From assembly GCA_948560265.1 (NCBI GenBank), contig CAOXTD010000001.1, positions 9,439 to 73,438 of the forward strand: 64,000 nt of DNA, given 5' to 3'. Origin of the DNA: an uncultured Clostridia bacterium. Its GTDB lineage: Bacteria; Bacillota; Clostridia; TANB77; CAG-508. Numbering within the stretch: position 1 is the stretch's first letter; each line of letters begins with the position of its first letter. A model generated the notes under the pieces. It saw only the letters and a list, made by a program, of their open reading frames with translations. It ran no database searches and had not been told where the DNA came from. Shown here piece after piece: positions 10,898 to 43,345 of this stretch. The position numbers and the translations under genes were made by a program.

Positions 10898-11383
10898 ATG
10901 GGAAGAAGAAGCAAATCTAGAAGTTTAATCAGTACACAGAGCCTACTCATTATTTTATGCCTTTTGCTAATAGCAGTAGCAGTACATATGCTATTTTCAG
11001 AAGATGACGAAAAAACTGTGGTAGGAGAAGCTAAAGAGCAAACACAAGCACAGAATCAAGAGAAAAATCAAGTACAAAACAAGGCACAAACAGAAAATCA
11101 AACAAAACCTACTACAAATAGCGAAATAAGTAAAAAAGGCGAAGCAAAAGTAGTGCAAAGTGAAAATAGTGCAAACGAAATCAATGAGCAAGAAGCCAGG
11201 AAATTAGCAGCCAAGCAATTCAAAGAATTGGACGAGAAATGGGTAAGAGAAAAAGAGCTAGAAGTATTAGAATTTTCAAGAGCAAATGAATATTATTATT
11301 ATATATCATCAAAAGAAAATACAGTAGAAATCAAAAAAGATGGTGGAAAAATTACTAGAATTAATAGTGTGCCAGTACAATAA
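10898..11383 (+). CDS. Small membrane-anchored protein with a Q/N/E/K-rich linker and a compact C-terminal domain (PepSY-like, tentative)
   Basis: RBS AAGAGGAG plus ATG. N-terminal TM (LLIILCLLLIAVAVHMLF), a low-complexity QAQNQEKNQVQNKAQTENQ stretch, and a C-terminal ~70 aa (EARKLAAKQFKELDEKW...YYYYISSKENTVEIKKDGGKITRIN). A terminator follows. Confidence 0.7.
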   Translation: MGRRSKSRSLISTQSLLIILCLLLIAVAVHMLFSEDDEKTVVGEAKEQTQAQNQEKNQVQNKAQTENQTKPTTNSEISKKGEAKVVQSENSANEINEQEARKLAAKQFKELDEKWVREKELEVLEFSRANEYYYYISSKENTVEIKKDGGKITRINSVPVQ

Positions 11384-11390
11384 ATGGTTA

Positions 11391-11421
11391 GAGATATGCT
11401 TATATTGCATATCTTTTTTTA
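11391..11421 (+). terminator. Rho-independent terminator of 10898..11383
   Basis: AGATATGC (11392-11399) / GCATATCT (11407-11414), followed by a T7 run. Confidence 0.7.
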
Positions 11422-11525
11422 TCATAAAAAATCTCCACTAAAATCACAAACCTAGTATTCCCTAGCAAAACACAAAATAGCCCCCTCATTTGTAACACAA
11501 AAGTAAATAAAATGTCAAAAAAAGC

Positions 11526-11560
11526 ACTTTCTAAGGAGAAAGTGCTTTTTCCGTATATTT
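11526..11560. terminator. Orphan bidirectional-looking hairpin terminator
   Basis: AAAGCACTTTC (11530-11540) / GAAAGTGCTTT (11547-11557), with an A-run before and a T-run after. No ORF is associated with it. Confidence 0.45.
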
Positions 11561-11658: not shown

Positions 11659-11841
11659 TTCAAATCTAGCCATATAGCAATTTCTTCACTGAGTTTCACG
11701 TTGTTACGCATTAGTTATTCGTAACGCTCGTTTCTCGCTAACGACTAACGTCAACTTCGGACGCTCCGCTATTTGAGGCTTTACTTCGTAAATCTCAAAT
11801 ACCTTGCTCCATTGCGAAATGCTATATTGTCAAGATTTGAA
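11659..11841. repeat. GC-richer structured insert bounded by ~26-nt imperfect inverted repeats, in the 5' leader of the giant gene
   Basis: Left arm TTCAAATCTAGCCATATAGCAATTTC (11659-11684). Right arm GCGAAATGCTATATTGTCAAGATTTGAA (11814-11841) is its near reverse complement.
Internal hairpins GTTACG..CGTAAC and ATTTGAG..CTCAAAT. Contains ACTAACGTC (11744-11752), the reverse complement of the GACGTTAGT core of the REP-like family. Confidence 0.6.
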
Positions 11842-11889
11842 AGAACAGCAAAATAATAACAAAAAAATACAAATGTGAGGGAAAAACAA

Positions 11890-14800
11890 ATGAAACTAAG
11901 CAAAAAACTAAGGAAGAGACGAAACAAAAAACTATTAACACTCCTTGTGGGAGCAGTAGCGACTACCAGTGTGGTATTAGCAACACAGCTAACAGACTTT
12001 AAAACTCTAACAGAAAATTTATCTAAACTTGGAATGCAAAGAGAAAATAATGCATACCAACTTTTAAGCGATAGTCAAGACACTACCGCTCATTTGCCAA
12101 CCCTCACAGATGAAGCAAAAGAAAATATTGGTGTAGCAGCAGGAAATAACTTTACAGCTGTGCTAAAAGCAGATGGAACTGTATGGACATGGGGTAATAA
12201 CAACTGTGGTCAATTAGGAAATGGAGAAATCCTAAATGCCGCAACCTATGAACTAACACAAGTAATTGGTGTAGGAGGAGAAGGGCATCTAGAAAATATT
12301 AAACAAATTGCAGTAGGAACTAATGAAGTATATGCCTTAACCAAAGACGGAAAAGTAATAGCATGGGGAAGAAATAACTATGCACAACTTGGTAGAGGTG
12401 CCACAGGAAATTCAGGAACACCAGAATATGTACTCACACAAGTAGACATAACAGACGAAGAAGGTAACAAAACAACACAAGATGTACCACTAGAAAATAT
12501 CAAGCAAATCACAGCAGGTGAAAGACATGCCTTAGCCATTGACAATAATGGAAATGTATGGGCATGGGGATTAAACCATGTAGGACAACTAGGATTAAAT
12601 GTAATATCAACTACTTCTAGCAATCCAAATTACAAAAAAGCATATGCAGTTAAAATGCAAAAAGAAGTAGAAGTAACAGATGAAGAAGGAAACATAACAA
12701 CTAAAACGGTAAACCTAGACAATGTAAAACAAGTATCAGCAGGAAATGATTTTTCAGTAATTTTAACCAATGATGGAAAAGTATATTGCACAGGAATTGG
12801 AACATCAGGACAAATTGGAAACAACGCAGCAGTAAATGTCATGATACCAACACAAGTACAAGGTTTAGAAGATGTGGAAAAAATAGATGCAGGAGGATCA
12901 CACACACTTGCATTAAAAAATGACGGAACAGTATGGGCATGGGGACTAAATCGATATGGACAATTAGGAATTAATACAGCAAGTACCTCCAGTAGTAATG
13001 CTTCATACAAGAGAATATATCCAGTACAAGTATTAAAAGCAGCAGGAACACCACTAGAAGATATCACAGAAATTAGTGCTAATTTAGAAACCAGTTATGC
13101 TATTACTAAAACAGGAGAAGCCTTTGGTTGGGGACTAAATACCTCAGGACAAATAGGGGATGGAACAGCAGCTAATAAACTGATAGCAACACAAACCAAG
13201 AAACCAGCAGGAGAATACATCACAGGAACTAAAATGTTATCAACAGGACAAAACACAAATGCCCATTACATCATAGACGAAAAAGGTGACATTTATGGAA
13301 GTGGACTATCTACTTCTTACCAAATGTTAAGTGACAGAGTAACTGCCACAAATGTTGCTACTAGACTAGATGAAAGCTATTTCAAACTAAGCAACAATCA
13401 ATCTTACCTAGAAGTAGGAAACACTTTAAACTTACAAGTAGGCTACTATAACGGACTTAATCTACTAAACAGAAAAGTAGTACCAGGAAATGTAACTTTT
13501 AGAAGTTCAAATGAAGACATTGCCACAGTTAGTGCCAATGGAACCATAACCGCAAAAGCAAAAGGATATGTAACCATTATTGCAGAAGACACCACAAATG
13601 GATATACAACACAAAGTATGATCAATATAGTAGCAAAAGGTGCTACAGCCCTTCCACAAGTAGCTAGTGGAACCTTAGCAACCGTTTATCTAAAAGAAGA
13701 TGGAACCGTTTGGACATCAGGAGATGGTGCAAATGGAATGTTAGGAAATGGTTATACCAAAATTATCAATAAACCAGTACAAGTAAAAATTGGAACAAAT
13801 GAATATTTAACAGATGTTAGAAAAGTAGAAATCGGAACAGAACATGTAATAGCACTTAGAAAAGACGGAACTGTTTGGACTTGGGGACTTGGAACCTCAG
13901 GACAACTAGGAGATGGAGCAAATGCCACAAGATATTATGCCACACAAGTTGTAGACGAAACAGGAGAAGATTATTTACAAAACATCATAGATGTAGCAGC
14001 AGGAATAGACTATTGTTTAGCATTAAAACAAGATGGAACAGTTGTAGGTTGGGGAGTTGGAACCAACCATTCACTAGGAGTTAATAATACTGCCAATAGA
14101 GCTATACCTATCAAAATGCATGACAGCTATAACATTATTCAAGTACAAGGTGGTTCAGACACAAGTACAGTTCTAAAAGCGGACGGAACTGTACAAGCAG
14201 TAGGACTTGGAACTTCAGGACAATTAGGAGATAACACAGCAGCTACCAAAGGAGAGTTAGTATATGCTATTAATGAAACACTAGATGGAAAACTAACAGG
14301 AGTTGTTAGAATTGTCACAGGTAGCCACCACACGATAGCATTAAAAGAAGATAAAACAGCAAGGATATGGGGTTACAACAATTATGGACAAATTGGTATG
14401 AACAATACCACAAACTATAAACATGCCATTCCACTTAAAAACGTTGGAAACACAGATATTATGCAAAACATCAAAGATATAGCAACAGGACCATCAGCTA
14501 CCTATGTATTAGACACACAAGGAAATGTATATGCAGTAGGACTAAACACTACAGGGCAATTATCTATTGGAAATGCCACTACAGTTAAAATATTCACACA
14601 AGCAAAAGACGAAAATGGTGAACCATTAACAGGTGTAGCTACTATTTCTAGTTCAAAAAATACTACTTTTGGCTTTGCTTTTACAGACGGAAGTATTGGC
14701 GTAACAGGACTTGGAACTAGTGGACAACATGGAAATTGGACATTAGCTAGTAGTAATAAAATGACAAGAATACAAGGAGCAATTTTAGATACAGGTAACA

Positions 14801-17800
14801 TTTATGAAACTTATGTCAACGACACTATCAAGTTAAACATTAACATAAAACCGGCATTTAACCTAAATGTAGACTCTGAAAAAACACTACAAATAGGAGA
14901 ACTAACCTATCAATCATTAGATGAAGAAATTGCCACAGTATCTACTGATGGAACTGTCATTGGAATGAAAGAAGGAACTACAGGAATTGTCATAACAGAT
15001 ACTACAAATGAATTAGAAACAACAGCTTATGTCACAGTAGGAAAAAGAGATTTTAGTGATATTCATAAAATAGTAGCAGGAACTAGCCATACAGTATTAC
15101 TAAAACAAGATGGAACAGTTTGGGCATGGGGTGGTAACAATGTAGGACAACTAGGAAATGGAGAAATCTTCGCCAAACAAGCCACACAAGCCACACAAGT
15201 ATTAAACCCAGAAGGAACAGGATATTTAACAGATATAGTAGACATAGCAGCAGGAAACAACTTTACAGTAGCACTAAAAAGAAATGGAACTGTTGTAGCA
15301 TGGGGAGAAAATACCTATGGCCAATTAGGAAACACAAATGGAACAGCAGAAAGACCAATCTATGTTGTAGACATGTATGCAAACCAATTAACAGGTGTAG
15401 TAGATATATCAGCAGCAAGAGATCATGCAGCAGCAGTTAAAGCAGATGGAACAGTTTGGGCATGGGGAAGAAATGACTATGGACAAATTGGAAACAACTC
15501 TACCCTAGCAACTTGTGCTTATGCAGTACAAGTATTAGATGCTACAGGAACAGACTATTTAAAAGACATCAAACAAGTTAGTGTAGGACAAGCCTTTGTA
15601 GCAGCATTAGCAAAAGATGGAACAGTTTGGAGTTGGGGAGCAGGAACCTTAGGACAATTAGGAAATGGAGCAAAAACAACTAAAAAATTACCAGTACAAG
15701 CAACAGGTGTAACAGACGTCAAGAAAATAGTAGCAGGAAATGCAGGAGTTGCTGTATTAAAAGCAGATGGAACAGTTTGGTGTTGGGGTATTAACAGATA
15801 TGGAACCTTAGGATATGGAACTCTAAGCACTAGCAGTAGCAATGCAAACTATTTAAAAACAACACAAATTCAAGTAAAAATAGATGCCAATACTTATCTA
15901 GAAAATGTAGTAGATATTGGTGGAACAATGGAATCTAGATTTGCCTTAACACAAGATGGAATCGTATATGGTTGGGGCTTAAATACAACAGGAGAACTAG
16001 GAGACAGTACAACAACTAATAAAGCTTATGCAACCAAAAACCTTAGAAGGTATAAAGACGAAGTAGAAAAAACAGTTGTCAAACTAAATGAGTCTTCATC
16101 TGGATATACCAATTACATGATCAAAGAAGATGGCAGTATTTTAGCAAATGGTAAAGTTGTCAATGGACAAATTCTAGATGGTGGGTTATACAGTGACGCA
16201 AGAACTTGTGTAGAAGATGTTTTAGCAAGCTACATGGAATTTGCAAACAGAATAGAGTACGTAAAACAAGGAACTACTAAAAAATTAGAAGTAAGAGGTG
16301 TAGAAAACCTAAATGTATTCGCAAAAGCACCAGAACTTGGTAACATAACATGGAAATCTATGAACGAAAATGTAGTTAGCATTGACCAAAATGGAAATAT
16401 CACAGCAAAAGAATTAGGACAAGCAACCATTATTGCAAAAGACGATAAACATGGATACAGAGCACAAGCTACTATCTATGTAACAGCCAACAAAGCAGAA
16501 GCAATCACAGCACCAATGGTAGTACAAGGAACAGGATTTACAGTAGCCTTAAAAGCAGATGGAACAGTTTGGACAACAGGACTAAATAACAATGGGGCAT
16601 TAGGAGATGGAACTACTACAAATAGAGAGAACTTAGAACCAGTCAAAATTGATGAGAATACGAACTTAACCAATGTTGTTAGAATTGCAGCAGGAAATTC
16701 ACATGTATTAGCAGTTACCAAAGACGGTTATGTATATGCTTGGGGACTAAATGGAAATGGACAACTAGGTATTAACTCTACTGCAAAACAAACTTATGCT
16801 CAAAAAGTATTGGACGAAACAGGAGAAAACTATTTACAAAACATCATAGATGTAGCAGCAGGTGGGTTACATAGTATTGCAATTGACAACCAAGGAAATG
16901 TCTATACTTGGGGAAAAGGTGGAAACTACCAATTAGGAAATTATGCTACAGCTAATAAATTAATTCCAGTTAGAGTATGGGACACATATAATGTGGTAAA
17001 AGCAGCAGGAGGAGCAGAATACACTGTTTTACTTCGCGGAGATGGAACAGCACAAGGAACAGGACTAAACACAAATGGTTGGCTAGCAATGGGAGATGCT
17101 ACAACTAGATATACTCCACTAGAAATGGGAAGCAACGCAGAAGGAGCTATTCAAAGAGAAATTTATGATATAACAGCAGGCGCAAACCATACCATTTTCC
17201 TAAAAGAAGATGGAAAAGTATATACAGTAGGACTAAACACTTCAGGACAACTTGCCACAGGAAATGCCACAGCAAGTAATGTACTAGTAGTAGCACAAAC
17301 CAAAAACGAAAAAGGAGAATTAGTTGATCTTGAAAATATCGCAAGTATCAGTTGTGGAGGAGCTACCTCTTTTGCAGTAAGCAAAAATGGAGAAGTATAT
17401 AGCACAGGACTAAACACTTCAGGACAATTAGGATTAGGAAACAAAACATCACCAATCAACACATTTACAAAAGTACTAGACTATCAAGGAGAAAACACAC
17501 TACAAAATGTAACAACAATTGGAAAAGGTGCAGGAAATACTATCAACAGTAGCTATATCACAAAAGATGGAACACTATACACAGCAGGGGATAATACAAA
17601 TGGACAATTAGGAAATGGAACATATATAGCAAGTCAATTACCAGTCATTGTAGGAAATGCAGAACTAAAAGTAGCAAACACTCAAATGAAATTGACAGTA
17701 AATGGAGAAGAACAAATTGCACTAAGCCTAGAATTAGGATTTAATGTTTATGACAACACAAAAGAAGTAGGAACAAACCTTACTTATGAAGCAACAAACC

Positions 17801-38800: not shown

Positions 38801-41800
38801 CAGAAGAAGAGGATGGAAGTTATACAGTTAAAGTGCCAGTACAAGATGATAGTTACAAAATGGAAGTAAAAGCTTCTAACCAATATGCTCAAGTTAAAAT
38901 TGAAGATAACGCATTTGCATTGGGAACAGATAGTTATACTTTAGATTTAACAGGAGTAAATGGTAAAACGGTAACAGTTACAGTAAAGGCACAAGACGGA
39001 ACAGAGAAGGTATATACAGTAAATGTACAAAAAGTATCTAGTGATAATACACTTCAAACCGTTAAAGTAAACAATGTAGAAATTACAGAACAAGACGGAA
39101 TTTATAGGGCATTTATCAAAGAAGATGTCACAAATGCTAACTTGTATGTAGAAACTACTCATAGTGGAGCTACTATCAAGTTAGGAGAAGATGACGAAAA
39201 AGTACATACTGTTACAAAAGATATTACAATGGATCAATCAGAAAAAACAATTGCAATGAAGGTAACAGCAGAAGACGGAAGTGTAAAACAATATACTATT
39301 ATCATTGCAAAAGAATCTTCAGATATTGAAATCCAAAGTGTTAAAGTGGATAACAAAGGTGCTATTGTGGTAGATGAAGAAACTTACTATATTACAGCAA
39401 CACCTGGAGCAACAGAAGCTCAAGTTGAAGTAATTGCAGCAAATCAATATGCTTTTGTACAAATTAACGGAAGTGAAAAACAAGTTGGTCAAAACACTGT
39501 TACAGTACCTTTACCAGCAAGTACAAAAGTAGTAGCTGTACCAATTGTCATCACAGCACAAAACGGAAAAAATAGTAAAACATATACTTTAAATATTGAG
39601 CAAGTATCCAATAATACGAATATCACCAAAGTAACTGTCAATGGAAAAGAAGTTGCAACCTATGATGAAGAAACAAAAACTTATACTCATATTGTGGACT
39701 ATTCAGTAGACGAAGCAGTAGTTACTGCTGAAACAGAAAATGCGGAAGCAACAGTTAGAATAGAAGCAGGAGCATTTAGTAAACATATAGCAACAGAAAC
39801 TGTATCAACAGCAGGAGAAATCAATGATATCACCATTACGGTCGTAGCAGAAGATGGAACAACAGAAAACAGGAAATTAGTCATCAAGAAATTATCACAA
39901 GATGCGTCTATCTTAAAACTATTTGTCAATGAAGTAGATATTGTTGCAAATGCTGATGGAAGCTATACAGCAGAAGTGCTAGAAAGTTTATCAAAAGCAA
40001 CTGTAAGAGTTAAAACCACAAATAAGGATGCTCAAATCTGGTTAGATGGAGAAGCCTTAGAAAATAAGGGAGAAGGAACAAAAGAATACAGTATAGCAGG
40101 TACTAGAAAGATAACTGTTCCAATTAAAATCATAGCAGAAGATGGTGTTACAACAAATGAAACTACTTTGACAATTAACATTGTTTCAGACAACAAGAAC
40201 TTAGAATATGTTAAAGTAAATGGGGCAGTTGTAACAGAGTATGATGAAGAAACAAATACCTATAAGGCATTTATACCAGCAACTAGTACATCAGCTGCTA
40301 TTGAAGCAAAAGCAATTAGCCCTTATGCAACCTTAAACATTGACGGAAATGCAGGAACGCAAGTAATTACTTATACAGCCACAACAGAGGAAGATATTAC
40401 TTATGTTTATGTAGATGTCATTGCAGAAGATGATAGTGTTAAAACCTATACAATTGCAATGCAAAAACAATCAACAGATAATACCTTAAAAGATTTATAC
40501 AAAGATGGTACACAAGTAGAACCACAAGAAGATGAAAACTATATAATTGATGTACCAGAAGAAACAAAAGAGGTAAGTCTAAAAGCAATTGCAAATAACG
40601 AATTTGCCACAGTAGCAATTGGTAACGAAACAGCAGAAGTAAAAGAAACCACTAAGACAGTTACCTTAGGTGCAGGCAAAACAACAGTGGTTAATATTAC
40701 TGTAACAGCACAAGATCAATCACAAAGAGTTTATACAGTAACAATTAACAAAGTATCTGCGAATAATCATGTAGAGTATGTCAAAGTAAATTCAAATATA
40801 GTCACAGACTATGATAGTGAAACTAAGACTTATGAAGCATTTATTCCAGTAGGTAGTACAAGTGCTGCTCTAGAAATTCAAACTGAAAATGCTTATGCAA
40901 CAGTTGAAGTGCTAGATACAAGTGTAGTACACAATATAAAAGTTACACAAACAATAGAAGAGGAAGAAACTTTAATACCAGTAATTGTAACAAGTGAAAC
41001 TGGGGTGGACGAAACTTACTACATCAAGTTAACCAGAATTTCAACAGACAATACGATAAAAGAAATCTATGTGAATGGAACTTTAATTACAAAAGATGAA
41101 GATGGAAACTATATCGCAGAAGTCGCAGAAAATAGTGTGGATGCTCTTGTCAAAGTGGTAGCAAACAACAAATACGCAAATGTCCAAATAGCTAATGGGG
41201 AAGCTAAAGTGGAAGTGAGCGAGGAAACTGTAACGTTATCTACTGATAAGATTACCAATGTATCGATTACTGTTACTTCACAAAGTGGAGCGGTTGCAAA
41301 TGAAACATTAGTGATTAAGAAAGTATCTGATGATACAGGAATTAATACAGTATTAGTTAATAACATTGAATGTAAAAATTATGATGAGAAGACTAAGACT
41401 TATACCGCCTATATTGGAGCAGATATAGAAGAATCTGAAGTAGCCGTTATGGCAAATAGCCAAGGTGCTCAAGTTACAATTGAAGATGTAACAGGAACAG
41501 GAAATGCAAGTAAAACAGTTGCAACTACAGCACAAACTACTAAGTTAGCAGTTACTATTACATCTGAAACAGGAAAAACTGCAAAATATACGATCAACAT
41601 TGTAAAAGAATCTGCAGATGCGACAGTAGAGCTAGTGAAAGTAAATGACAAAGAAGTACAAGCACCTTATGATGTAACCATTAAGAAATTAGATACAAAA
41701 GCAAAAATCTATGTAAAAGCAACAAATGGAAATGCTACTGTAAAAATAGGGGATGAAGTAGCTGAAAAAGGAAGCAGCGAGGTAACTCTAACTATTCCAC

Positions 41801-43221
41801 TAGAGCAAGATGTGATTGTTGTACCAGTTGTTGTAACTGCTCAAAATGGTATTGCAAAAGAAACCTATAACATTACTTTAAGAAGAGTTAGCAATAATAC
41901 AGGAATTAAACAAATACTAGTCAATGGGGAAGACGTGGATTTAACAACATTTGAACACATTGTGAAAAATGTAAATGAATCAAGTATTGTGATTATTCCA
42001 GAGGATGAAAATGCAACCGTTAAGTTAGATAGTACAGATTCTAGTACAAATGATAACACTTGGAAAGTGGCTACTTCTACAACTACTATTAGGGGAATTA
42101 CAGTAACAGCACCAGATGGAACTGAAAAAGAATACACACTTACTTTAATGAAAAAGGTAACAATTTCAGGAACTATCACAGATGAAAACATTATGGATAA
42201 ACATATTGCAAAAGTCTTTGTTTACCAAACAGATGACACAAGAAAAGAAAGTACCAAAACAGATTTGAACGGTATTGAACTAGATGAAACAAATGGAACA
42301 GTTCAAACTGATATTAGGGAAATTATTGCAGAGGTAGAAACAGAGCCAGATGGAAGTTATGAAATCGTGTTAGAACCAGGAGAGTATGATGTGGTATTCG
42401 TAAAACCAGGATATTTAACACATAGAATTACTCATATTGATATTTCTAAAGGAAAAGGTGCAGAATTAGAAACTGTAAAAATGTTAGCTGGTGATGTTGT
42501 TGAAACAGGCGAAATTGAATTAGACGACTTAGTAAGTATCAACGAACAATATGGTTTAACAGTAAGTTATGCAGATGGCGTAAATGACGCAAATGTAAAA
42601 TATGACTTTAATGGTGATGGTATCGTAGATAGCAAAGATAGAAATATCTTAAAGAAAAACTACGGTAAAAAAGCAAAAACAGTAAAATGGGTTGATCCAG
42701 ACGAAGTAGCAAAACAAGAAGCGGCAAAAGCAGCAAGAAAAGCTACAGCAAATGTAAGCAGTGAGACTAGGGGAACTTCTGCTTATGAAGGACAATTCGT
42801 ATTACCACTAAATAGCAAATACACCATTACATCAAACTATGGGGACAGATTTGGACCTATTACACAAGATAATGAAAAACACACAGGAATTGATATTGCA
42901 GGAGAACATCATGCAGAGGTATTAAGTGTTGCTGATGGGGAAGTAACATGGGCAGGCGTACAAAATGGTTATGGTAACTGTATTGAAGTGAAACATATTG
43001 TTAATGGGGAAACAATATACAGCTTCTATGCACACTTATCAGAAATCAAAGTACAAGTCGGAGATAAAGTAGTACAAGGCCAAGTAATTGCTTTAGAAGG
43101 TGGAGATCCAAACACTGACCCTAATCCGGGGGACAGCACAGGACACCACTTACACTTCGAGATGAGAACCAACTCTGGTTATGGAAATGATGTAGACCCA
43201 AGCAAGTATATTAATTTCTAA
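11890..43221 (+). CDS. Giant secreted/anchored multi-propeller protein (~10,443 aa; 10,448 aa if the GTG at 11875 is used) with a C-terminal M23 peptidase
   Basis: Uninterrupted reading frame of ~31.3 kb. GAGGG RBS 8 nt before the ATG at 11890. N-terminal signal/anchor MKLSKKLRKRRNKKLLTLLVGAVATTSVVLATQ.
Module order: 17 x (7 RCC1 repeats + Big_2), 23 cadherin-like repeats, CarboxypepD_reg-like, dockerin-like, M23. A terminator lies at 43346-43375. Confidence 0.92.
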   Translation: MKLSKKLRKRRNKKLLTLLVGAVATTSVVLATQLTDFKTLTENLSKLGMQRENNAYQLLSDSQDTTAHLPTLTDEAKENIGVAAGNNFTAVLKADGTVWTWGNNNCGQLGNGEILNAATYELTQVIGVGGEGHLENIKQIAVGTNEVYALTKDGKVIAWGRNNYAQLGRGATGNSGTPEYVLTQVDITDEEGNKTTQDVPLENIKQITAGERHALAIDNNGNVWAWGLNHVGQLGLNVISTTSSNPNYKKAYAVKMQKEVEVTDEEGNITTKTVNLDNVKQVSAGNDFSVILTNDGKVYCTGIGTSGQIGNNAAVNVMIPTQVQGLEDVEKIDAGGSHTLALKNDGTVWAWGLNRYGQLGINTASTSSSNASYKRIYPVQVLKAAGTPLEDITEISANLETSYAITKTGEAFGWGLNTSGQIGDGTAANKLIATQTKKPAGEYITGTKMLSTGQNTNAHYIIDEKGDIYGSGLSTSYQMLSDRVTATNVATRLDESYFKLSNNQSYLEVGNTLNLQVGYYNGLNLLNRKVVPGNVTFRSSNEDIATVSANGTITAKAKGYVTIIAEDTTNGYTTQSMINIVAKGATALPQVASGTLATVYLKEDGTVWTSGDGANGMLGNGYTKIINKPVQVKIGTNEYLTDVRKVEIGTEHVIALRKDGTVWTWGLGTSGQLGDGANATRYYATQVVDETGEDYLQNIIDVAAGIDYCLALKQDGTVVGWGVGTNHSLGVNNTANRAIPIKMHDSYNIIQVQGGSDTSTVLKADGTVQAVGLGTSGQLGDNTAATKGELVYAINETLDGKLTGVVRIVTGSHHTIALKEDKTARIWGYNNYGQIGMNNTTNYKHAIPLKNVGNTDIMQNIKDIATGPSATYVLDTQGNVYAVGLNTTGQLSIGNATTVKIFTQAKDENGEPLTGVATISSSKNTTFGFAFTDGSIGVTGLGTSGQHGNWTLASSNKMTRIQGAILDTGNIYETYVNDTIKLNINIKPAFNLNVDSEKTLQIGELTYQSLDEEIATVSTDGTVIGMKEGTTGIVITDTTNELETTAYVTVGKRDFSDIHKIVAGTSHTVLLKQDGTVWAWGGNNVGQLGNGEIFAKQATQATQVLNPEGTGYLTDIVDIAAGNNFTVALKRNGTVVAWGENTYGQLGNTNGTAERPIYVVDMYANQLTGVVDISAARDHAAAVKADGTVWAWGRNDYGQIGNNSTLATCAYAVQVLDATGTDYLKDIKQVSVGQAFVAALAKDGTVWSWGAGTLGQLGNGAKTTKKLPVQATGVTDVKKIVAGNAGVAVLKADGTVWCWGINRYGTLGYGTLSTSSSNANYLKTTQIQVKIDANTYLENVVDIGGTMESRFALTQDGIVYGWGLNTTGELGDSTTTNKAYATKNLRRYKDEVEKTVVKLNESSSGYTNYMIKEDGSILANGKVVNGQILDGGLYSDARTCVEDVLASYMEFANRIEYVKQGTTKKLEVRGVENLNVFAKAPELGNITWKSMNENVVSIDQNGNITAKELGQATIIAKDDKHGYRAQATIYVTANKAEAITAPMVVQGTGFTVALKADGTVWTTGLNNNGALGDGTTTNRENLEPVKIDENTNLTNVVRIAAGNSHVLAVTKDGYVYAWGLNGNGQLGINSTAKQTYAQKVLDETGENYLQNIIDVAAGGLHSIAIDNQGNVYTWGKGGNYQLGNYATANKLIPVRVWDTYNVVKAAGGAEYTVLLRGDGTAQGTGLNTNGWLAMGDATTRYTPLEMGSNAEGAIQREIYDITAGANHTIFLKEDGKVYTVGLNTSGQLATGNATASNVLVVAQTKNEKGELVDLENIASISCGGATSFAVSKNGEVYSTGLNTSGQLGLGNKTSPINTFTKVLDYQGENTLQNVTTIGKGAGNTINSSYITKDGTLYTAGDNTNGQLGNGTYIASQLPVIVGNAELKVANTQMKLTVNGEEQIALSLELGFNVYDNTKEVGTNLTYEATNPEVVTVSNTGKVTGKRLGTTRIKITDKTNDLEKYVPVTVLHSYGYTESKVSSGINFSVALKEDGSVWAWGVGTSGRLGNGATTNQINEVPVLAPNGKDQLTGVKDIAVGYDSAMALLEDGTMVAWGNNGSYNLGDGTNTDRSIPVYVVDANGDKIQNITKIAKGNDFSLALTKDGEVYAWGWNAYGQLGNGGTSTTVVPAKVKDQTGKGTLKGIIDVQCGMRWSMALGEDGTVWTWGYNVDGELGNGTTDQVNVPKISKLSNIDKLATSAYAAMAIDKDGQLWSWGWNGYGQLADGTTTSRPTPIKPKLDANTIVTDVIDVGTAGGTHYILDSNYKVYAVGQNGQGQIGDNTTTNRSYFTQVKAKYGETLTDKFVKISSSVARPDSNTDTSTAYLTREDGSIFGLGKNSSYQLFGKNTDVIKCAKPMQTSYLEITQRINRIKIGENTKLVLNMEQNFNIYSKTPVTGNITWTSSNESIVAVDKDGNVTGLKEGQATITAKDDKYGYIATAIVYVTRNTANTITIPQVSQGQKFTIVLKADGTVWASGQNNVGQCGIDSTVANIGKLTPVKTDKGANLNNIVKIVSGLEYTLALTKDGKVYGWGLNSNGQLGINSKTNQFTATYMLDEEGENPVTDVIDIAAGDCFSTILKSNGELYTVGNGTYSQLGNGTTTTTMVLGKMEEMQNVVQVVNGGYHTIMLRGDQTVWTVGRNRYGEMGINSIKDSSTATAQGIGIARQVINQDLNGVLKNITQVTAGGYHSAALSNTKEVYSWGYGADGQLGTGKASNFYYPQPVLSYKPTAEADEQITGITQIGSSERSIFFLTENNEVYATGENSNYQLSQDNTTDLLKPSGLYDYTGEKYIDQIANVPTAAKNIYNTAVIKQDGTVWVSGLGANGQVGNEEFQTAKLYTRMGIAKLQVSDKIVTIPQGGTHTLNVSVNQGFNVYEGQTDKANKLQFTSSNTSIATVSENGVITAVKQGEVRITIYDPEHDWTTSSIVKVTRDAQDKVKAEVSTGNAGIILKTDGSVWSTGGNTYGERGVGDKAKHLQETPVLDPNGKDHLTDVISISAGQYFNAAVKRDGRVVTWGLNNYGQLGNKTNVNSEIPVYVLDANGNPLTGIIQVSCGFEFTIALKEDGTVWTWGYNYYGQLGDNTASNRNYAVQVKDRSGLGYLQGICQVATNRNTTFALTDTGEVYSWGYNYDGQLGDGTRNTGSSAGGRRKILPVKALINDVARIVGGMHSTIALKNDGTIWTWGLNRYGTLGYGASSTSDNSNYAKATPMQVKIDSATFLTNVVEIGTAHEADYAITKDGKAYSWGYNNVGQLGVNNTTNYSYAQLVKRMYGELLTDKVVTLNKGVSASTCYMIREDGTILGVGHNATTQRMLSNRNVNFTTVQELRPDFMEVNQRISYVKQGETLKLDVHIAQNLNAFAGHIQLGNLSYASSNPEIAEVSNDGTVTAVGLGETTITIKDLDHGYQAQAVVYVIQNNEKAITMPDISQGDTFSVFLKADGTVWTVGLNSNGQCGDGTTINRSKPVRVKINSKEYLSNIVKISAGVDHVMALSKTGEVYTWGFNDVGQLGNGSTTRGVFASKMLDSNGQNPISNVIDINSGYKFSLMLFNDGTVWGVGRNVYGELGILNNANKSLPVQMDGIANAIRVQASSSGASIQIANGTVWTTGYNYYGTLGQNGTNTGSSAAAQGRNIPNPVINNARDAVLRNVVKLSGGLHQNIVLQEDNTVWAWGYNNVGQYGTGNTTSFAYPVRVKTMGVDPIDKVVNIGTSGYNTLLQTVDAQNKKHTWISGYNNNGQLGNNTTTNATSFIPLNNKDNTGEAENIDILPDDARGYQTSGVIDTNGTVWTVGLNNYGQLGDDTVYNRKNIVQVGEIALKVEDIIFTMNPNDTKQIKAYIEDSFNVYIKENQVGTLKFESLDTAIAEVSDTGVVTAKGIGDTLIRVIDTTRDIQSAVYVKVIKKQEDMQYEPMVDGGSNHSVALKGDGTVWAWGYNKYGQLGNNTTVTTEMPTQVLGKDANGFLTDIQMIASGTNHVLALKNDGTVWAWGYNNYGQLGDNTQITRYTPVQVLSEDANSPLQDIIYIAAGTNYSVAVNKKGEVWTWGQNDYGQLGDGTKTAKYTPVRVKANLSGIIKVACGIRHTVALKADGSVYTWGDNANGQLSDNTNSQRIIPVKVLETVDTYLSDAISISASSYSTHILKSNGTVISSGLGTSGQLGNNGKVNTKLPVTAVGVGGTDTLTQIRNIKSGANTTYALRKDGTVVAWGIGTSGELGNETFANSLFPVEVVNHTQDGIMSNILYIGAGANHGLAVEDTGYVEVWGLNNQKQVGDITIAKTAHPLYIGSKVVAVPSKVTMEMGDTQALKVSMQSFNLFRAEEDLNRNVTYQSLNETVATVSADGVITAKAMGVTTIVVKDGLSNKVTTVEVSVLENGAIATPKVVSGINHTVALKADGTVWTWGYNHHGQLGDGTTKSSYIPQKIGLTDVIDVAAGDHFSMALKKDGTIWVWGVNDRGQLAQGNTVESLTPVPVKGVNGDPLPKAKKITACRFQWLAILETGEVVGCGSNTGSILGDGTSTDKHLPVYMLDHTGSAHVKEVKDIGIGQCESFIVKEDGTIWSVGHNCAGGMGVGNTSAYSKIRQVQDTTGTGVLTNIIQVSCGGWYNLALDANGNVWAMGRNKEGELGINNTTNQTRPQKVLGVNGTGYLENIVRIEAGYYSSFAIDKAGNVYGWGYNNNGQLGINNTTTQKVPKQVLAGATGGNLDDVMFVSSNGYHTTFVKYDGTVWTTGYNGNGELGNDSTVKRLTVECISNPRLEVDQKYLLFGPNIGETKKVNVKVNSGFNLLTDTVPAGANTYKSLNTSIAQVDQNGNVTSTGSGTTYIKITNDTLGLATTVKVVVPYRDGMIVPKIVGGANHYVALKSDGTVWTWGYNGYGQLGIGNTEKQLEPVKTNMTDVIDIAAGTNYTAVLKRDGTVWVTGQNNYGQLGQNDTANTTNFVQVKSENGLSHLEGIVAITAVNYHMAALKSDGTVVAWGYNAYGQLGNNTTTTAKLPTRVRRVSSIMDIAAGGNFLILLDADGSVWATGHSNYGQLGQNNTTASRIPIKMLNPAGSGEMTGIIKIGAGSNHTVLLGENGKVYSVGYNGYGQLAIGNTTQKNLLVEAKEVGGAVITNAADIVAKNHTTTILRKDGSVYTAGYNGYGQAGNGTTVANKYFTKMLGEYGEGDFTNVLLGAQTNNTTAVANNIGSVYTAGYNAYGQLGDKTTKSATYLVGISHTSLEVKEPIMTIQQIGSQKQIECKLNLGFNILYNNLETENYTYKVLNKDIASVDQNGVVTALKYGSTSIEITNQETGNKATVILNVVRDGDIANPKVASGVDYNVALKSDGTVWTWGYNNYGELGLGDNTRRLEPTKVNITGVIDIAVGNHHTLLLKQDGTVWAMGLNNYGQIGNNTTTNAMLPVQVQGLENIIRIEAGANHSIALKSDGRAYGWGYNAYGQLGDNTTTRRSLPVEVRRINNLKAISAGNHSTAALDTDGNVWVWGLNTSGQLGLGTKTNVILPTKLTSVSKIAQVEMGINYGMVVTENGEVYSFGVNDVGQLGIGNKTNQTTPKQVLQQDKTPLTNVEYVAAGTKHVFAKTKNGLAYGWGLDTSSQLGDDQTTNKLNAVPITYAGGADEITEVLEIDAGNAHSILVREDGTVWTVGKNNYGQLGDETTVNKKSWVCISDIRIKVKETSITISSVGGKYNLNPVLGVGFNLLYNDGADGDFAYASKDTATADVSEKGVITGIKRGKTKIGITETNTEKTIYVDVYVLDEKDVAFPQIVTGESTTIALKADGTVWTWGQNDKGQLGLGDNKNRIAPTKVEIDNVVKIATSGNHTLALKKDGTVWAWGQGTAGQLGTGLLQNSNVPVQVRDETGVNVLQNIKEIATANQLSMVVTKEGKVYAWGLGTSGQIGNGAKSNQTMPTKTLGLSNITKIAGGNLSCYAITDEGEAYAWGYNNRGQLGDGTNTVRTQPVKIPNLTGMIEISAASTDQVIALKDDGTVWGWGYKTLGALTDVGGSTPKQIAGKTNRMKDIASISAGYYAGLAITDEGKVLGWGTNGFGGLGNGTTTNTAIPTNVMENSTKELDQIFVIAMGKNYSVYAKEDGSVWATGTNEFGQLGNTSTVTIHTPENISQDYISTDKLELVFQELNVEQPINATYNLGFNLYNNTSDVKLTYTSDDDTIAAVGENGMVTSRNVGKTYITIRAGELARRVEVNVLQPQEIAAMDAQGGLRHTLALKTNGTLWAFGDNSYGQLGLGTVESTTYHKPQEVRLPENVKITKIAVGNNHNLALDTNGNVYGFGLNANGQLGNNANANSGELVKAEGLTNIVKIAAYKNISMALNKDGELFVWGEGYSKQPEKIEFHTKIIDMTGRIILSEQGSVWNMKNLNEKTPMLTNIVEIASGDSHHLALKADGTVYGFGANSYGQLGQGNTTNADKPVAIANLPKAESVKANLYTSYVLTTTGEVYSFGRNTKSSLGQNSKETYRATPTKIDSSKVQRISAGQNFGIYVDDEGFVYSWGNNDYGQLAQEAKEIITPSVIGTVKVQTDKDYITIQEGETKGISATLNNTFNLRKDVIASDGFTFESMNTGIATTQDIRVTGMKEGITPIVISHPASEQKSAIYVEVVRPNAKSVIDLKAGTDFNLSLKADGSIWSWGSGAYGKLGVGSLENYNEPQQIPTTTRTRQIAVGLEHIVVLSENAKAYTAGKNGNGQCGNGTSVNSKELVEVLNENGKPLENLVMIAAYGNTTYLLDHDGIVYACGAGYNKVATKVANLPKMAQISGHYGITMDKKVVDLSTGNPVEKLQNIIKIAQGDNHTLFLSQDKTVYSLGTNTNGQGGIGTKTNIMTPTQVKNNVGTGILTTVVDIAAGKNFSMAVLEDGTVYTWGSNENNKLGTDQTNDQILPRRNTNIQNAIKVSAGTNHAAFVANDGRVYAWGNGENGSLGNGVDANSILPVLVGSEEVVADNHHVTLHIDEETTLNANIKSFNLINDLKSEGLTYKSNNAEIVLVDNNGKVTGLKEGKASVTVTQNGTDHQAIIQVTVLRKNAEVNPLVKTTNSSNVILKSDGTVWTYGANDNGELGNGNNTASDNLNKVVFNPEVKIEEIAVGENHTLALDENGEVWAWGSNSYYQLGTSEIANSNRPIKLELGSKVIKIVAGYNSSYAITEDNNLIAWGLNLDGQLGLGNNDNRLLPTKVRTLKNVLDVTAGKSHTVVVTTDGTVYTTGNNSFGSLTGDDYKRNTFKPATNLSNIVYISAGEYHNIALSTKNEVYVWGYNVYGQLGTGNTSNLSTPVKVDIANAKQVSSGKSHSSILTKDGKLYSTGLNSLGQLGTTSKDNQVTFTLVDTIDNVYGIDTGNTYDMAIKNDGTVWAWGDYYHGTTAIRTKSNSRVPTQIGIQNFYLVENDIAVNKDTSKQLQVNPQFEFNVFENNTLENNFSYTSLNEEVATVDENGNVTGKKVGTTWVKVAENTSKAEQIAIIRVVEPGNKVAPKVAGGSDYAVVLKADGSVWSFGYNSNGQLGDSSFVASKVPKEINILKSYTDITAGDNFTLILKNDGTVWGVGDNQYGQLGLGDRASRQTPTVIPNLENVVKIAAGSKHSIALTKYGEVYTWGANTNGKLGTGDTQTKDVPVKIEIPGANIIDVAAGEGYIVLVDSNGSIYVSGKLGNIDSKVPVSVNGITNATKVAAGKDLIVLTKQGNVVKVGEQTTTLYDKKDAVDIAAKGTNYLVLNNSGKLFDGNTSSNGEIGDVLTIGSGMNNTYYIANSGLVYAVGPNQYGSLGNDTTDSSDVYTLVGKRSFTVSPNNVLMSTNDSKDLSLTSERYNVLKQDNRTIDDFDWVSNDTDIVTVEGPAKIKAAAEGETTITVTQKDTGAKVEIVVVVEPLEAQRLEKLAVNEVDAQVSGSMKYEVTIESNEDTGSLVISTKDKTDKISIDGGTTWFENGSLTQVVSLPTPVTQIPIKVQTTNGTVFDYTLDVIKQSTITALESLTVNGTEATATGGTNYSIVVEDADLATVKAVTTHEKAKVGIDSNEVAIHEATQDLSLVDTLIRTVPIKVIAESGKEVNYVLTIYKKSAVTELESVTVDGKEATKNNHLNYSMVVEKETTSVDIKAIAIYDLANVNINNLGAEVKQTTRTITLTGDVTTVKIKVGVGEEEKEYTLTITKKIDGSDLADLFVNGEKATKISDNQYEAVVASNSQTAEVLAIAAVNTSNVQIGANSQEVGKSQVTVATLENANIYTITITDAEDVSKTATYTLTIKKPSTDNSLKYIRISNNEISIDATRENGTDIYRAKINEKYENLTITAVANYELAEVAIEANSYQVKQDTLAYTFNTENATLQIKVKPQDGQEKTYTLILEKQSSDVTLEYVKVNGADAVKSEEKADTYEITLTQKAENVSVEAKTTDKAAEVALNNIVYELQTITKQIAMDAKEITIKINVKAEDGTTKTYDLIIHSVPDNTKLTEVSVNGVKATLQPYSNKYVVRVPSNLSTYAVTAKAEDSLATVKIDNFDAILAQSTQNIAKADPVPTKVAIEVTAQDKESKETYELEIYPRAQDTVLAYLKVDESLVELSQDGQYHVKVAGSTQNVTIEAKTGDENATVGVDAAGTANIVTTVGTLTGDVTVFDIIVTAEDGNTKTYKLNVEKLSSDTSLVGIYVDGIEVNPVDGKYVAKIGNNSTAIVKAIATNPEAKVSVDGNTDALKENQNTIDVNEEEKTIEITVTAEDGTKKIYPLTLQRNSTDNTLLSISGKDVSQDNVVQTSENTYQMIVSNELTTLELTAVTSSKVAEVKIENNNYEVNTQTKEVALPNDTNTVVITVKAESGEEKTYTLTIIKKYILTLDQITVDGIVAEKQEDGTYIAWVDPTNTQSQVVVTPTSSKVQVKVGETIDNIGTTTYTVTTTEDETISKIIVKSPIEEDQVEYTLKIMKKSQDTTLEYVKVDSQVGTEEEDGSYTVKVPVQDDSYKMEVKASNQYAQVKIEDNAFALGTDSYTLDLTGVNGKTVTVTVKAQDGTEKVYTVNVQKVSSDNTLQTVKVNNVEITEQDGIYRAFIKEDVTNANLYVETTHSGATIKLGEDDEKVHTVTKDITMDQSEKTIAMKVTAEDGSVKQYTIIIAKESSDIEIQSVKVDNKGAIVVDEETYYITATPGATEAQVEVIAANQYAFVQINGSEKQVGQNTVTVPLPASTKVVAVPIVITAQNGKNSKTYTLNIEQVSNNTNITKVTVNGKEVATYDEETKTYTHIVDYSVDEAVVTAETENAEATVRIEAGAFSKHIATETVSTAGEINDITITVVAEDGTTENRKLVIKKLSQDASILKLFVNEVDIVANADGSYTAEVLESLSKATVRVKTTNKDAQIWLDGEALENKGEGTKEYSIAGTRKITVPIKIIAEDGVTTNETTLTINIVSDNKNLEYVKVNGAVVTEYDEETNTYKAFIPATSTSAAIEAKAISPYATLNIDGNAGTQVITYTATTEEDITYVYVDVIAEDDSVKTYTIAMQKQSTDNTLKDLYKDGTQVEPQEDENYIIDVPEETKEVSLKAIANNEFATVAIGNETAEVKETTKTVTLGAGKTTVVNITVTAQDQSQRVYTVTINKVSANNHVEYVKVNSNIVTDYDSETKTYEAFIPVGSTSAALEIQTENAYATVEVLDTSVVHNIKVTQTIEEEETLIPVIVTSETGVDETYYIKLTRISTDNTIKEIYVNGTLITKDEDGNYIAEVAENSVDALVKVVANNKYANVQIANGEAKVEVSEETVTLSTDKITNVSITVTSQSGAVANETLVIKKVSDDTGINTVLVNNIECKNYDEKTKTYTAYIGADIEESEVAVMANSQGAQVTIEDVTGTGNASKTVATTAQTTKLAVTITSETGKTAKYTINIVKESADATVELVKVNDKEVQAPYDVTIKKLDTKAKIYVKATNGNATVKIGDEVAEKGSSEVTLTIPLEQDVIVVPVVVTAQNGIAKETYNITLRRVSNNTGIKQILVNGEDVDLTTFEHIVKNVNESSIVIIPEDENATVKLDSTDSSTNDNTWKVATSTTTIRGITVTAPDGTEKEYTLTLMKKVTISGTITDENIMDKHIAKVFVYQTDDTRKESTKTDLNGIELDETNGTVQTDIREIIAEVETEPDGSYEIVLEPGEYDVVFVKPGYLTHRITHIDISKGKGAELETVKMLAGDVVETGEIELDDLVSINEQYGLTVSYADGVNDANVKYDFNGDGIVDSKDRNILKKNYGKKAKTVKWVDPDEVAKQEAAKAARKATANVSSETRGTSAYEGQFVLPLNSKYTITSNYGDRFGPITQDNEKHTGIDIAGEHHAEVLSVADGEVTWAGVQNGYGNCIEVKHIVNGETIYSFYAHLSEIKVQVGDKVVQGQVIALEGGDPNTDPNPGDSTGHHLHFEMRTNSGYGNDVDPSKYINF
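12124..35610 (+). repeat. 17 tandem supermodules, each an RCC1-type beta-propeller followed by a Big_2 Ig-like domain (unit 1.2-1.46 kb)
   Basis: The RCC1 signature recurs (e.g. AAGNNFTAVLKADGTVWTWGNNNCGQLGNG). I counted seven blades in each of the two modules I dissected (1 and 14).
Big_2 domains recognised by ...N.(D/E)IATVS..G.VTA...G...I....; their centres lie near 13530, 14935, 16380, 17800, 19240, 20700, 22155, 23605, 25015, 26425, 27810, 29160, 30510, 31745, 32990, 34310 and 35505. Confidence 0.85.
35611..42156 (+). repeat. 23 tandem cadherin-like beta-sandwich (Pfam PF12733-like) coding repeats (~285 bp each)
   Basis: Each ~95-aa unit begins (S/T)..L..(I/L/V).V(N/D)G and ends ...(T/E)Y.L.I.K.S. 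Examples of unit endings: DYTLDVIKQS, NYVLTIYKKS, TYTLTIKKPS ... EYTLTLMKKVT. Counted by eye. Confidence 0.75.
42157..42672 (+). other. CarboxypepD_reg-like beta-sandwich plus dockerin-like EF-hand pair (domain region of the giant CDS)
   Basis: ISGTITDE...PDGSYEIVLEPGEYDVVFVKPGYLTHRI matches the carboxypeptidase-regulatory-like fold signature. One degenerate loop (GDVVETGEIELDDLVSI) and one canonical Ca-binding loop (DFNGDGIVDSKDRNILKKNYG, 42601-42672). Confidence 0.6.
42796..43218 (+). other. M23/LytM metallopeptidase domain (C-terminus of the giant CDS), catalytic motifs intact
   Basis: HxxxD as HTGIDI (42881-42898), YAHL, and HxH as GHHLHFEM (43141-43164). Flanking ...GYGNCIEVKH...GDKVVQGQVIALEG... 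is typical of Peptidase_M23 (PF01551). Confidence 0.85.
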
Positions 43222-43222
43222 C

Positions 43223-43339
43223 ATGTCGCAGTGGGGACGTTAAGTCAGCTGTGTGAAGCGAAGCGAACTACAGATGATTTATGCGATTGAGCATAGCGAA
43301 ATGTATAGTTAGTGCAATATCTGTCCCCCAATACGACAT
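43223..43339. repeat. REP-like palindromic element, copy A (starts 2 nt after the giant-gene stop)
   Basis: Left arm ATGTCGCAGTGGGGACGTTAAGTCAGC. Right arm CTGTCCCCCAATACGACAT is its imperfect reverse complement. Shares the GGGGACGTTA core with the copies at 56256, 59235 and 62599. Confidence 0.6.
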
Positions 43340-43345
43340 TTTTGC

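Follow-up and report, generated by a model that had tools for sequence, protein, structure and literature searches.

A giant RCC1-propeller protein from a mouse-gut Clostridia bacterium: a candidate dockerin-tethered fibre with a predicted M23 peptidase

A single reading frame of about 31.3 kb runs uninterrupted through a 64,000-nucleotide stretch of DNA from an uncultured, low-GC Clostridia bacterium (GenBank assembly GCA_948560265.1, contig CAOXTD010000001.1, positions 9,439 to 73,438 of the forward strand), here called the window. The locus raises three questions: whether a gene of this size is real, what its product is built of, and which end of that product is attached to the cell. The first has a plain answer, as the frame is a genuine, intact and selectively maintained gene. 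Its domains stand in the order signal peptide, 17 units of an RCC1 propeller plus a Big_2 domain, 23 cadherin-like domains, an X-module and dockerin (together XDoc), a linker, and an M23 peptidase domain. We take the product, with moderate confidence, to be a giant fibrillar adhesin that would be exported by the Sec pathway as an extracellular fibre, tethered through its dockerin and equipped with a built-in peptidoglycan endopeptidase. The gene and its parts are the following.

11890..43221, + strand: giant gene, 10,443 codons plus stop; alternative GTG start at 11875
11890..11985, + strand: putative signal peptide, amino acids (aa) 1-32: n-region basic, h-region LLTLLVGAVATTSVVLA, likely site for signal peptidase I between VLA and TQ
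12115..30606, + strand: modules M1-M13, seven-blade RCC1 propellers each with a Big_2 domain; N-terminal part, variable and expandable
30607..35604, + strand: modules M14-M17, propeller plus Big_2, shorter and with degenerate blades; the core, whose order is conserved in distant homologues
35635..42159, + strand: tandem array of 23 cadherin-like beta-sandwich domains (aa 7916-10090), presumably the stalk
42160..42489, + strand: X-module, a CarboxypepD_reg-like Ig/transthyretin-like sandwich, aa 10091-10200, recognised by Pfam, PDB and Foldseek
42490..42675, + strand: dockerin, aa 10201-10262; first calcium loop GDVVETGEIELDD degenerate, second DFNGDGIVDSKD canonical
42676..42789, + strand: linker, predicted helix (model residues 180-199), evolving nearly neutrally
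42790..43218, + strand: M23 (LytM-type) zinc metallopeptidase domain with HTGID (H10331, D10335), YAHLS (H10382) and HLH (H10420, H10422)

Counted from the GTG, the open frame (11875..43221, +) comprises 10,448 codons with zero internal stops; at the stop probability per random codon given by the local base composition (p = 0.071), the chance of such a stop-free frame is ~10^-336. The preferred start is the ATG at 11890, with a GAGGG, recognised as a ribosome-binding site by reading the sequence, 8 nt 5' of it; gene callers picked the same start in four independent assemblies. The resulting product of 10,443 aa has a predicted mass of ~1.1 MDa. Other-frame open reading frames (ORFs) of at least 150 aa within the giant ORF number only two, of 168 and 195 aa, both antisense. 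An earlier reading of the letters without database searches (the sequence-only reading) had described an uninterrupted ORF of ~31.3 kb and ~10,440 aa in which all other-frame ORFs fall below 200 codons, and both statements were borne out.

Four independent assemblies encode a product of exactly 10,443 aa: L027 (megahit, 65 kb), L029, L032 and L034 (SPAdes). They surfaced when the neighbouring SDR protein was looked up, and they derive from different mouse-gut samples and assemblers; two of the four represent a strain about 1.4% divergent in DNA. The window itself is identical to L025 and L027 over the last 8.4 kb of the giant gene. Amino-acid identity is 25-45% among the 17 modules and 15-43% among the 23 repeats of the stalk, a divergence too great for the array to have collapsed or inflated in assembly. 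The longest exact DNA repeat within the 31-kb ORF measures 32 bp, and Tandem Repeats Finder returned no DNA tandem repeats in the giant gene or in the nearby gene for a Big_3 protein, described below. Over the last ~3,780 codons the gene is colinear with its counterparts in three related metagenome-assembled genomes (MAGs; C-terminal identity 92-99%), with no repeat-sized insertions or deletions and a ratio of non-synonymous to synonymous substitution rates (dN/dS) of 0.13-0.16; a human-gut orthologue, 58% identical, is also colinear with it. Shorter calls of the gene coincide with contig ends, scaffold gaps or N-gaps.

The bulk of the protein consists of propellers. In the Pfam scan of the giant protein WD40_RLD, RCC1 and RCC1_2 were all found at E=0. 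The RCC1-like propeller families tested (PF25390/PF00415/PF13540) included matches above the gathering score that cover the whole seven-repeat profile; WD40_RLD scored 2650 and 1747 bits in 20 and 12 stretches, with a profile coverage of, for example, 25-360 of 363. The best PDB sequence matches of the propeller were UVR8 (E=6e-59) and HERC2, and Big_2 (PF02368) scored 201.7 and 77.3 bits (E 1e-60). Repeats were counted with profile hidden Markov models (HMMs) iterated from the giant protein itself. These gave exactly 17 Big_2 copies, one behind each propeller and spaced 399-487 aa apart (1.2-1.46 kb), and 115 RCC1 blades. Fourteen of the 17 modules have seven detected blades; modules 14 and 15 have six each and module 17 has five, and the gaps in these three have the size of the missing blades, which would fit degenerate blades. 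The 17 units of 1.2-1.46 kb described by the sequence-only reading were thereby recovered, and seven blades, its count for the two units that it dissected, were found in all but those three. NCBIfam holds no family for the modules, for the stalk or for the neighbouring proteins.

The propeller modules, M14-M17 included, evolve at a dN/dS of 0.10-0.18 in comparison with the related MAG L012, which was the reference for all segment-wise values given here. Within M1-M8 (12115-23706) similarity alternates: the odd modules M1, M3, M5 and M7 are mutually 32-45% identical and the even modules M2, M4, M6 and M8 mutually 32-39%, whereas identity between the odd and even sets is 26-33%. This alternation points to growth of the N-terminal array by duplication of a two-propeller unit.

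For the cadherin-like domain (PF12733) Pfam scores were 270 and 85 bits (E 9e-82), above the gathering score, and the protein-derived HMM counted exactly 23 copies of about 87-90 aa each, the number originally proposed. The dN/dS of this stalk is 0.12-0.14. Stalk, XDoc and M23 domain together make up about 25% of the giant protein.

At the C-terminus the CarboxypepD_reg-like, dockerin-like and M23 segments that had been noticed by eye could all be placed. CarboxypepD_reg, when scanned alone, reached 45.1 bits, above its cutoff; Peptidase_M23 (PF01551) reached 82.8 bits; Dockerin_1 reached 17.1 bits, below its cutoff of 22.9, in a match spanning profile positions 2-54 of 57. The Pfam check proposed with the original reading was therefore supported for RCC1, Big_2, Cadherin-like, CarboxypepD_reg and M23, with Dockerin_1 under its cutoff. 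Many homologues of the C-terminus carry a precomputed PF00404 match. When aa 10091-10443 were searched against the PDB with phmmer, the XDoc of Acetivibrio cellulolyticus ScaA (4wi0_B/4u3s_B) was retrieved at E=1e-5 in an alignment that spans X-module and dockerin, and the M23 end matched 9gy1, 3slu, StM23, NMB0315, ShyA, LytM and lysostaphin. An AlphaFold2 (AF2) model of the C-terminus, built with 59 homologues, had a mean predicted local distance difference test (pLDDT) score of 90, with the X-module also at about 90. Foldseek placed the type II XDoc chains 4u3s_B, 5g5d_B and 2b59_B on this model (E about 7e-8, template-modelling score 0.62-0.66), and, separately from the XDoc matches, LytM on the M23 domain with a root-mean-square deviation of 1.7 Å. 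As judged from sequence and model, the CarboxypepD_reg-like domain and the dockerin are thus a type II-style XDoc dyad, a refinement of the two domains first named. XDoc dyads are the device that tethers the cellulosomal scaffoldins CipA and ScaA to cell-surface anchoring proteins. The Pfam scans of the giant protein contained no glycoside hydrolase, carbohydrate-binding module or cohesin families, so that it is not a cellulosome component.

The residues of the second calcium loop (D149, N151, D153 and D160 in model numbering) are invariant across the 59 homologues, and the M23 residues H241, D245, H292, H330 and H332 nearly so. In the protein the zinc-binding and catalytic motifs HTGID at 10331, YAHLS at 10380 and HLH at 10420 form a full active set, and the M23 enzyme is predicted, from sequence and model, to be active. 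The dockerin has the lowest dN/dS of all segments (0.056); the X-module has 0.10 and the M23 domain 0.21; the 38-residue linker, at about 1, is the sole segment without purifying selection. No NCBIfam equivalog was reached by the M23 domain, whose matches all lie well short of their cutoffs, the best being Pgp3 with 74.7 bits against a cutoff of 300.

The wider family was searched with two queries, the C-terminal 444 aa and one 475-aa module. For the module alone there were 33,682 matching cluster representatives at E<=1e-30, and the top matches include many proteins of 2,500-7,200 aa with 40-88 blades from clearly different lineages. RCC1 proteins with several propellers are very common in metagenomes. 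At least eight representatives have the full architecture (P0124, P0128, P0138, P0154, P0158, P0159, P0161 and P0215), with 7-11 Big_2-delimited modules and 14-24 stalk repeats, and on two metagenome scaffolds there are relatives that measure at least 5,700 aa in one case and about 12,600 aa in the other, with an N-gap as the sole interruption. Close orthologues come from mouse, in genomes titled 'uncultured Clostridia bacterium', and more distant ones from human and rabbit, one rabbit MAG having two paralogues. In four of the five homologues that were mapped, the final four modules are the counterparts, in the same order, of M14-M17; the N-terminal modules of homologues are lineage-specific duplications and differ in number. 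By these alignments M14-M17, the stalk, the XDoc and the M23 domain appear as the conserved part of the family and the number of N-terminal propellers as its variable part, from about 8 to 17, which answers the suggestion that module number be compared among related genomes.

Some loci hold more than one such gene. A 2,683-aa glycine-rich ALK_LTK_GRD protein that also ends in Cadherin-like-XDoc-M23 adjoins the giant homologue in L007 (12128-21452), and in L014, the rabbit MAG, another gene of the giant type follows directly, downstream of 11311, its product having a similar signal peptide; both cases suggest that paralogous fibres with different heads occur in clusters. Apparent standalone XDoc-M23 proteins were rejected as not real: none has a signal peptide, and each is a fragment called where a contig begins or behind an N-gap.

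Which end, then, is attached? The hydrophobic N-terminal segment that had been read as a signal peptide or signal anchor is present: aa 14-34 form the sole hydrophobic segment of the whole protein (only here does a 19-mer score above 1.6). Homologues have the same N-terminal layout, with small residues at -1 and -3 after the h-region, and from these features we read the N-terminus as a putative Sec signal peptide that is cleaved off. A motif check detected no LPXTG in the giant protein, and Pfam gave no S-layer homology (SLH) or cell-wall-binding (CWB) domain. Because the signal peptide appears cleavable and no LPXTG, SLH or CWB anchor was detected, the C-terminal XDoc is the most likely attachment point; and because the XDoc resembles scaffoldin tethers, the M23 domain would lie at the base of the fibre. 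By analogy with those tethers it is more likely that the C-terminus is the tethered base, with the M23 domain base-proximal and the propellers distal, than that the enzyme is a tip. A conserved C-terminal core combined with variable N-terminal modules fits a distal, adaptable binding end. The very long, multivalent extracellular fibre pictured by the sequence-only reading remains the natural reading of the domain order; its further proposal, a cell-anchored fibre with the enzyme at its tip, probably has the two ends the wrong way round, given the apparently cleavable signal peptide and the probable C-terminal XDoc tether.

A possible course of events can be outlined. After cleavage of the signal peptide, the XDoc would dock the C-terminus onto a cohesin-type partner at the surface, for which the adjacent membrane-anchored Big_3 protein of 2,269 aa is a candidate, as its layout is that expected of a cohesin-bearing anchor. 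The cadherin-like array would serve as the stalk, and the diversified propellers might reach ~0.2 µm outward (a rough extended length from typical sizes of 17 propeller plus Ig units and 23 Ig-like domains, not a computed one) for multivalent binding of the surfaces of other cells or of host glycans. The M23 domain, on its flexible linker near the base, could cut peptidoglycan cross-links either in the cell's own wall at the anchoring site or in the wall of a contacted cell.

Several points weigh against this dockerin-tethered fibre. In the ~200-aa beta-rich N-terminal domain of the 2,269-aa candidate partner, which has only 3 homologues, no cohesin was found by Pfam, PDB phmmer or profile searches. 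The AF2 model of this domain is poor and unreliable (pLDDT 40), and cohesins made up 6 of the 21 top Foldseek matches to it, all with E>0.1 and none significant. In the giant protein Dockerin_1 stays under its gathering score and the first calcium loop is degenerate. Signal-peptide cleavage is something that we infer by reading the sequence. Finally, an M23 domain at the base would lie ~200 nm from whatever the propellers bind, which fits poorly with attack on a target unless the fibre is flexible or released.

Among the alternatives the one that survives best, still doubtful to our minds, is that the protein is a host or matrix adhesin or a component of the cell coat, with an M23 domain that acts on the producer's own wall only, in anchoring, remodelling for display or daughter-cell separation. 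The M23 domain does adjoin the tether; DD-endopeptidases with housekeeping roles are common among M23 enzymes, and in PDB and NCBIfam this one lies nearest to the MepM, ShyA and Csd3/Pgp3 types; arrays of Big_2 and cadherin-like domains are typical stalks of gut-commensal adhesins (PMC9210967); and no immunity gene accompanies the locus. There is, however, no known reason to fuse a housekeeping autolysin to a 10,000-aa fibre throughout a family, and no carbohydrate-binding or mucin-binding domain was detected in the protein.

A second possibility, which we consider unlikely, turns the fibre around: an uncleaved N-terminal signal anchor would hold it in the producer's membrane and the XDoc and M23 domain would be a distal tip that docks onto and lyses a target ~0.2 µm away. 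The length of the N-terminal segment and the very basic n-region before it would suit an anchor, and the enzyme, whose catalytic residues are strictly conserved, would then be placed at the target cell. However, the sortase gene in the window points to a monoderm host, and in a monoderm a propeller only ~45 residues past a membrane anchor would sit under the wall. The small residues at -1 and -3 recur in all homologues, XDoc dyads are known as scaffoldin tethers (PDB 2b59, 4u3s, 5g5d), and it is the N-terminus that varies, all of which argues for the opposite polarity.

We think it equally improbable that the protein is a contact-dependent antibacterial or predatory weapon, its propellers capturing bacteria and its M23 domain lysing their walls, as proposed for the giant proteins of Omnitrophota and, speculatively, for gut Clostridia. 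In favour of such a role, the M23 domain has kept an intact, conserved active site, other large proteins, such as the 2,683-aa one in L007, finish in the same Cadherin-like-XDoc-M23 cassette, the gene lies in an accessory island (see below), and adhesion or predation was suggested for related giants by West-Roberts et al. (bioRxiv 10.1101/2023.11.21.568195). Against it, none of nine loci has a conserved downstream ORF that would fit as an immunity gene, the C-terminal domain is never polymorphic, being always M23, and an XDoc tether would put the M23 domain at the fibre base. An additional scenario, and to us a long shot, combines elements of these: in a non-cellulosomal cohesin-dockerin system, the 2,269-aa neighbour would display the propeller fibre and its active M23 domain, with which a gut Clostridia bacterium of small genome would seize other bacteria and open their walls, by analogy a Gram-positive counterpart of the epibiotic predation by giant proteins that has been proposed for Omnitrophota. 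The weakest reading, that the giant ORF is an assembly artefact or decaying pseudogene, for instance a collapsed or inflated repeat array, can point to at least one probable consensus error in the window (a 1-nt deletion in rpoC) and to several fragmented MAG versions of the gene, and is effectively refuted by the identical length in four independent assemblies, the divergence of the repeats, the purifying selection on every domain class and the position of the fragmented versions at contig ends or N-gaps.

How does this protein relate to what has been described? RCC1-type giant genes of gut Clostridia are already on record (West-Roberts et al. 2023, bioRxiv 10.1101/2023.11.21.568195, section 12), as are other Clostridia proteins of 10,000-30,000 aa, with dockerin repeats among them, and the same authors speculated on roles of giant proteins in adhesion and predation. 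Like their RCC1 giants, the present protein is huge, predicted to be extracellular and dominated by RCC1, comes from Clostridia of the human, mouse and rabbit gut, and has no membrane-spanning anchor in its mature part. In contrast, those giants belong to Oscillospiraceae and consist of a single repeating domain throughout, whereas this one, from a lineage near 'Clostridium sp. CAG:567', is a composite with stalk, XDoc and M23 domain. The protein thus belongs to an already known but uncharacterised class, and its earlier billing as the best candidate for a novel system in this DNA was overstated in view of the 33,682 module matches, the eight or more proteins of the same architecture and the 2023 preprint. 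The accompanying remark that no characterised protein strings so many RCC1 propellers together holds, as none turned up; nor was any experimental study of RCC1-type gut giants found in the literature.

With the fibrillar adhesins of Gram-positive bacteria (Monzon/Bateman definition, PMC9210967) the protein shares a signal peptide, a long stalk of Ig-like domains of the Big_2 and cadherin-like types, a functional region placed distally at the N-terminus, and attachment by the C-terminal end. It differs in having no LPXTG, SLH or CWB anchor, so that attachment would be via the dockerin, in a head of 17 propellers in place of one adhesive domain, in an enzyme at its base, and in being several times larger; the text of PMC9210967 does not contain the term 'RCC1'. 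As in the type II XDoc of Clostridium thermocellum CipA (2B59/5G5D) and A. cellulolyticus ScaA (4U3S/4WI0), an Ig-like X-module and, directly behind it, a dockerin are found C-terminally in a very long extracellular protein of modular build. Unlike these cellulosomal scaffoldins it has no cohesins, carbohydrate-binding modules or glycoside hydrolases, the first calcium loop is degenerate and an M23 domain follows the dockerin. In fold, and in its complete HxxxD...H...HxH set of zinc and catalytic residues, that domain agrees with LytM, lysostaphin, ShyA, MepM, NMB0315 and StM23; unlike known M23 enzymes it reaches no NCBIfam equivalog and is fused to a non-catalytic fibre of 10,300 aa. Seven-blade RCC1 propellers are likewise found in UVR8, HERC1/2, RCC1, BLIP-II and the Legionella RCC1 effectors, which have one to three propellers and are intracellular or small secreted inhibitors or effectors; here 17 diverged propellers lie in one extracellular chain with a Big_2 domain behind each. 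Classification as a polymorphic toxin was considered and rejected: the C-terminus is always M23 in relatives, nine loci show no conserved downstream ORF, and in a review of polymorphic toxins the single occurrence of 'RCC1' is a virus strain name and M23 and dockerin are never mentioned.

Proteins above 10,000 aa are rare, RCC1-type gut giants are without experimental study, and this gene is unusually well validated for its size, by four assemblies of the same length and purifying selection in every domain class. What is added here to the literature is the XDoc tether joined to an M23 end that is predicted to be active, the four-module core with its expandable array, and a candidate anchor next door. 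Since the organism comes from the gut of laboratory mice, transcript, peptide and imaging tests are feasible. A cohesin partner and an M23 substrate, if found, would tell how a monoderm displays a megadalton fibre and what such fibres are for in the gut: adhesion, remodelling of the wall, or attack on other bacteria.

Upstream of the giant gene the following features were identified.

2148..3407, + strand: 419-aa protein with Cadherin-like domain, X-module and dockerin (Dockerin_1 25.3 bits, above cutoff)
3443..10252, + strand: 2,269-aa Big_3 surface protein, with a hydrophobic N-terminal segment, a beta domain at aa ~115-310, 11 Big_3 domains, a Pro/Thr linker, a C-terminal transmembrane segment and a tail
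10898..11383, + strand: 161-aa small membrane-anchored protein, directly upstream of the giant gene, also in other assemblies
11390..11550, + strand: two terminator-like hairpins, at 11390-11416 and, bidirectional, at 11519-11550
11827..11882, + strand: candidate promoter (TTGTCA-16-CAAAAT, 11827-11854) and ribosome-binding site (GAGGG, 11878-11882)

The two hairpins stand between the 161-aa ORF and the giant gene (three terminator-like hairpins were found, compared with 0.6 expected). Because they separate the two, the giant gene looks like a transcription unit of its own, probably with its own promoter. The candidate promoter is weak, matching the consensus at 9 of 12 positions, with equally good matches in the shuffled background. 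A scan of the window against Rfam gave nothing at the gathering score.

The 419-aa protein has a C-terminal cassette of the giant's type, but without the M23 domain. It lacks a signal peptide at its only possible start, and many mouse-gut assemblies encode it without any difference; it may be what remains of a larger paralogue, or else a partner made in the cytoplasm. The Big_3 protein is polymorphic in length between strains that are 98-99% identical in DNA, with 2,269 aa here and 2,616 aa in contig L001 (11296-19146), an in-frame difference of about 347 aa, whereas the giant is constant at 10,443 aa. Contig L001 was also considered as a strain without the giant gene, as it diverges directly after the terminator at 11433 into unrelated sequence of higher GC content. 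This was rejected, the contig (ERR675670_1441; 20328-21260) being most likely a chimeric assembly join; its foreign part encodes, on the opposite strand, a translation that is discoidin-like by eye.

The chromosomal flank on the other side carries SDR, hydrolase, Bax1-I and CAP genes, then rpoB (48810) and rpoC, with the sortase gene further on. With such chromosomal genes around it, a prophage or phage tail-fibre reading of the giant gene was not favoured, although no search aimed at phages was made. The host's RpoB shares 99% of its residues with uncultured mouse-gut sequences and 91% with 'Clostridium sp. CAG:567'. A comparison with L035-L038 showed that in CAG:567-like human relatives the Sm_multidrug_ex gene, at 897-1382 in the window, lies only a few kb from rpoB, and between the two there are no genes for the giant, 419-aa, 2,269-aa (Big_3) or 161-aa proteins, nor SDR, hydrolase, Bax1-I or CAP genes; a more distant relative has a type I CRISPR-Cas locus at that position. 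Since the block is missing or replaced in relatives, the ~47 kb between 1.4 and 48.8 kb form a variable island.

In the window rpoC is split at 53131 (ORFs 52708-53247 and 53217-56243) by a 1-nt deletion, GGAACAAGTG to GGAACAGTG. As L025 and L027, two otherwise identical independent assemblies, encode an intact RpoC of 1,178 aa, the split is probably a consensus error.

Between the giant and SDR genes lies a 1.6-kb gap (43222-44811) without ORFs of 71 aa or more. It contains three diverged copies of a unit of ~330-370 bp with TATGCTATAAT-type -10 boxes and TGCCTCC...GGAGGCA arms, and a perfect sigma-70 consensus promoter at 44394-44422 (+). Related MAGs (L009-L012) have the same units in different copy numbers, and Rfam matched them only to RsaJ, far below threshold; they may be small RNA genes or repeated regulatory elements. 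In a close relative (MAG MGBC162590; L024, 1-6715), a 2,424-aa MucBP/Cna_B surface protein and a sigma-70_r2/zf-HC2 anti-sigma pair, which are not in the window, are encoded downstream of the giant's end and upstream of the alpha/beta-hydrolase gene.

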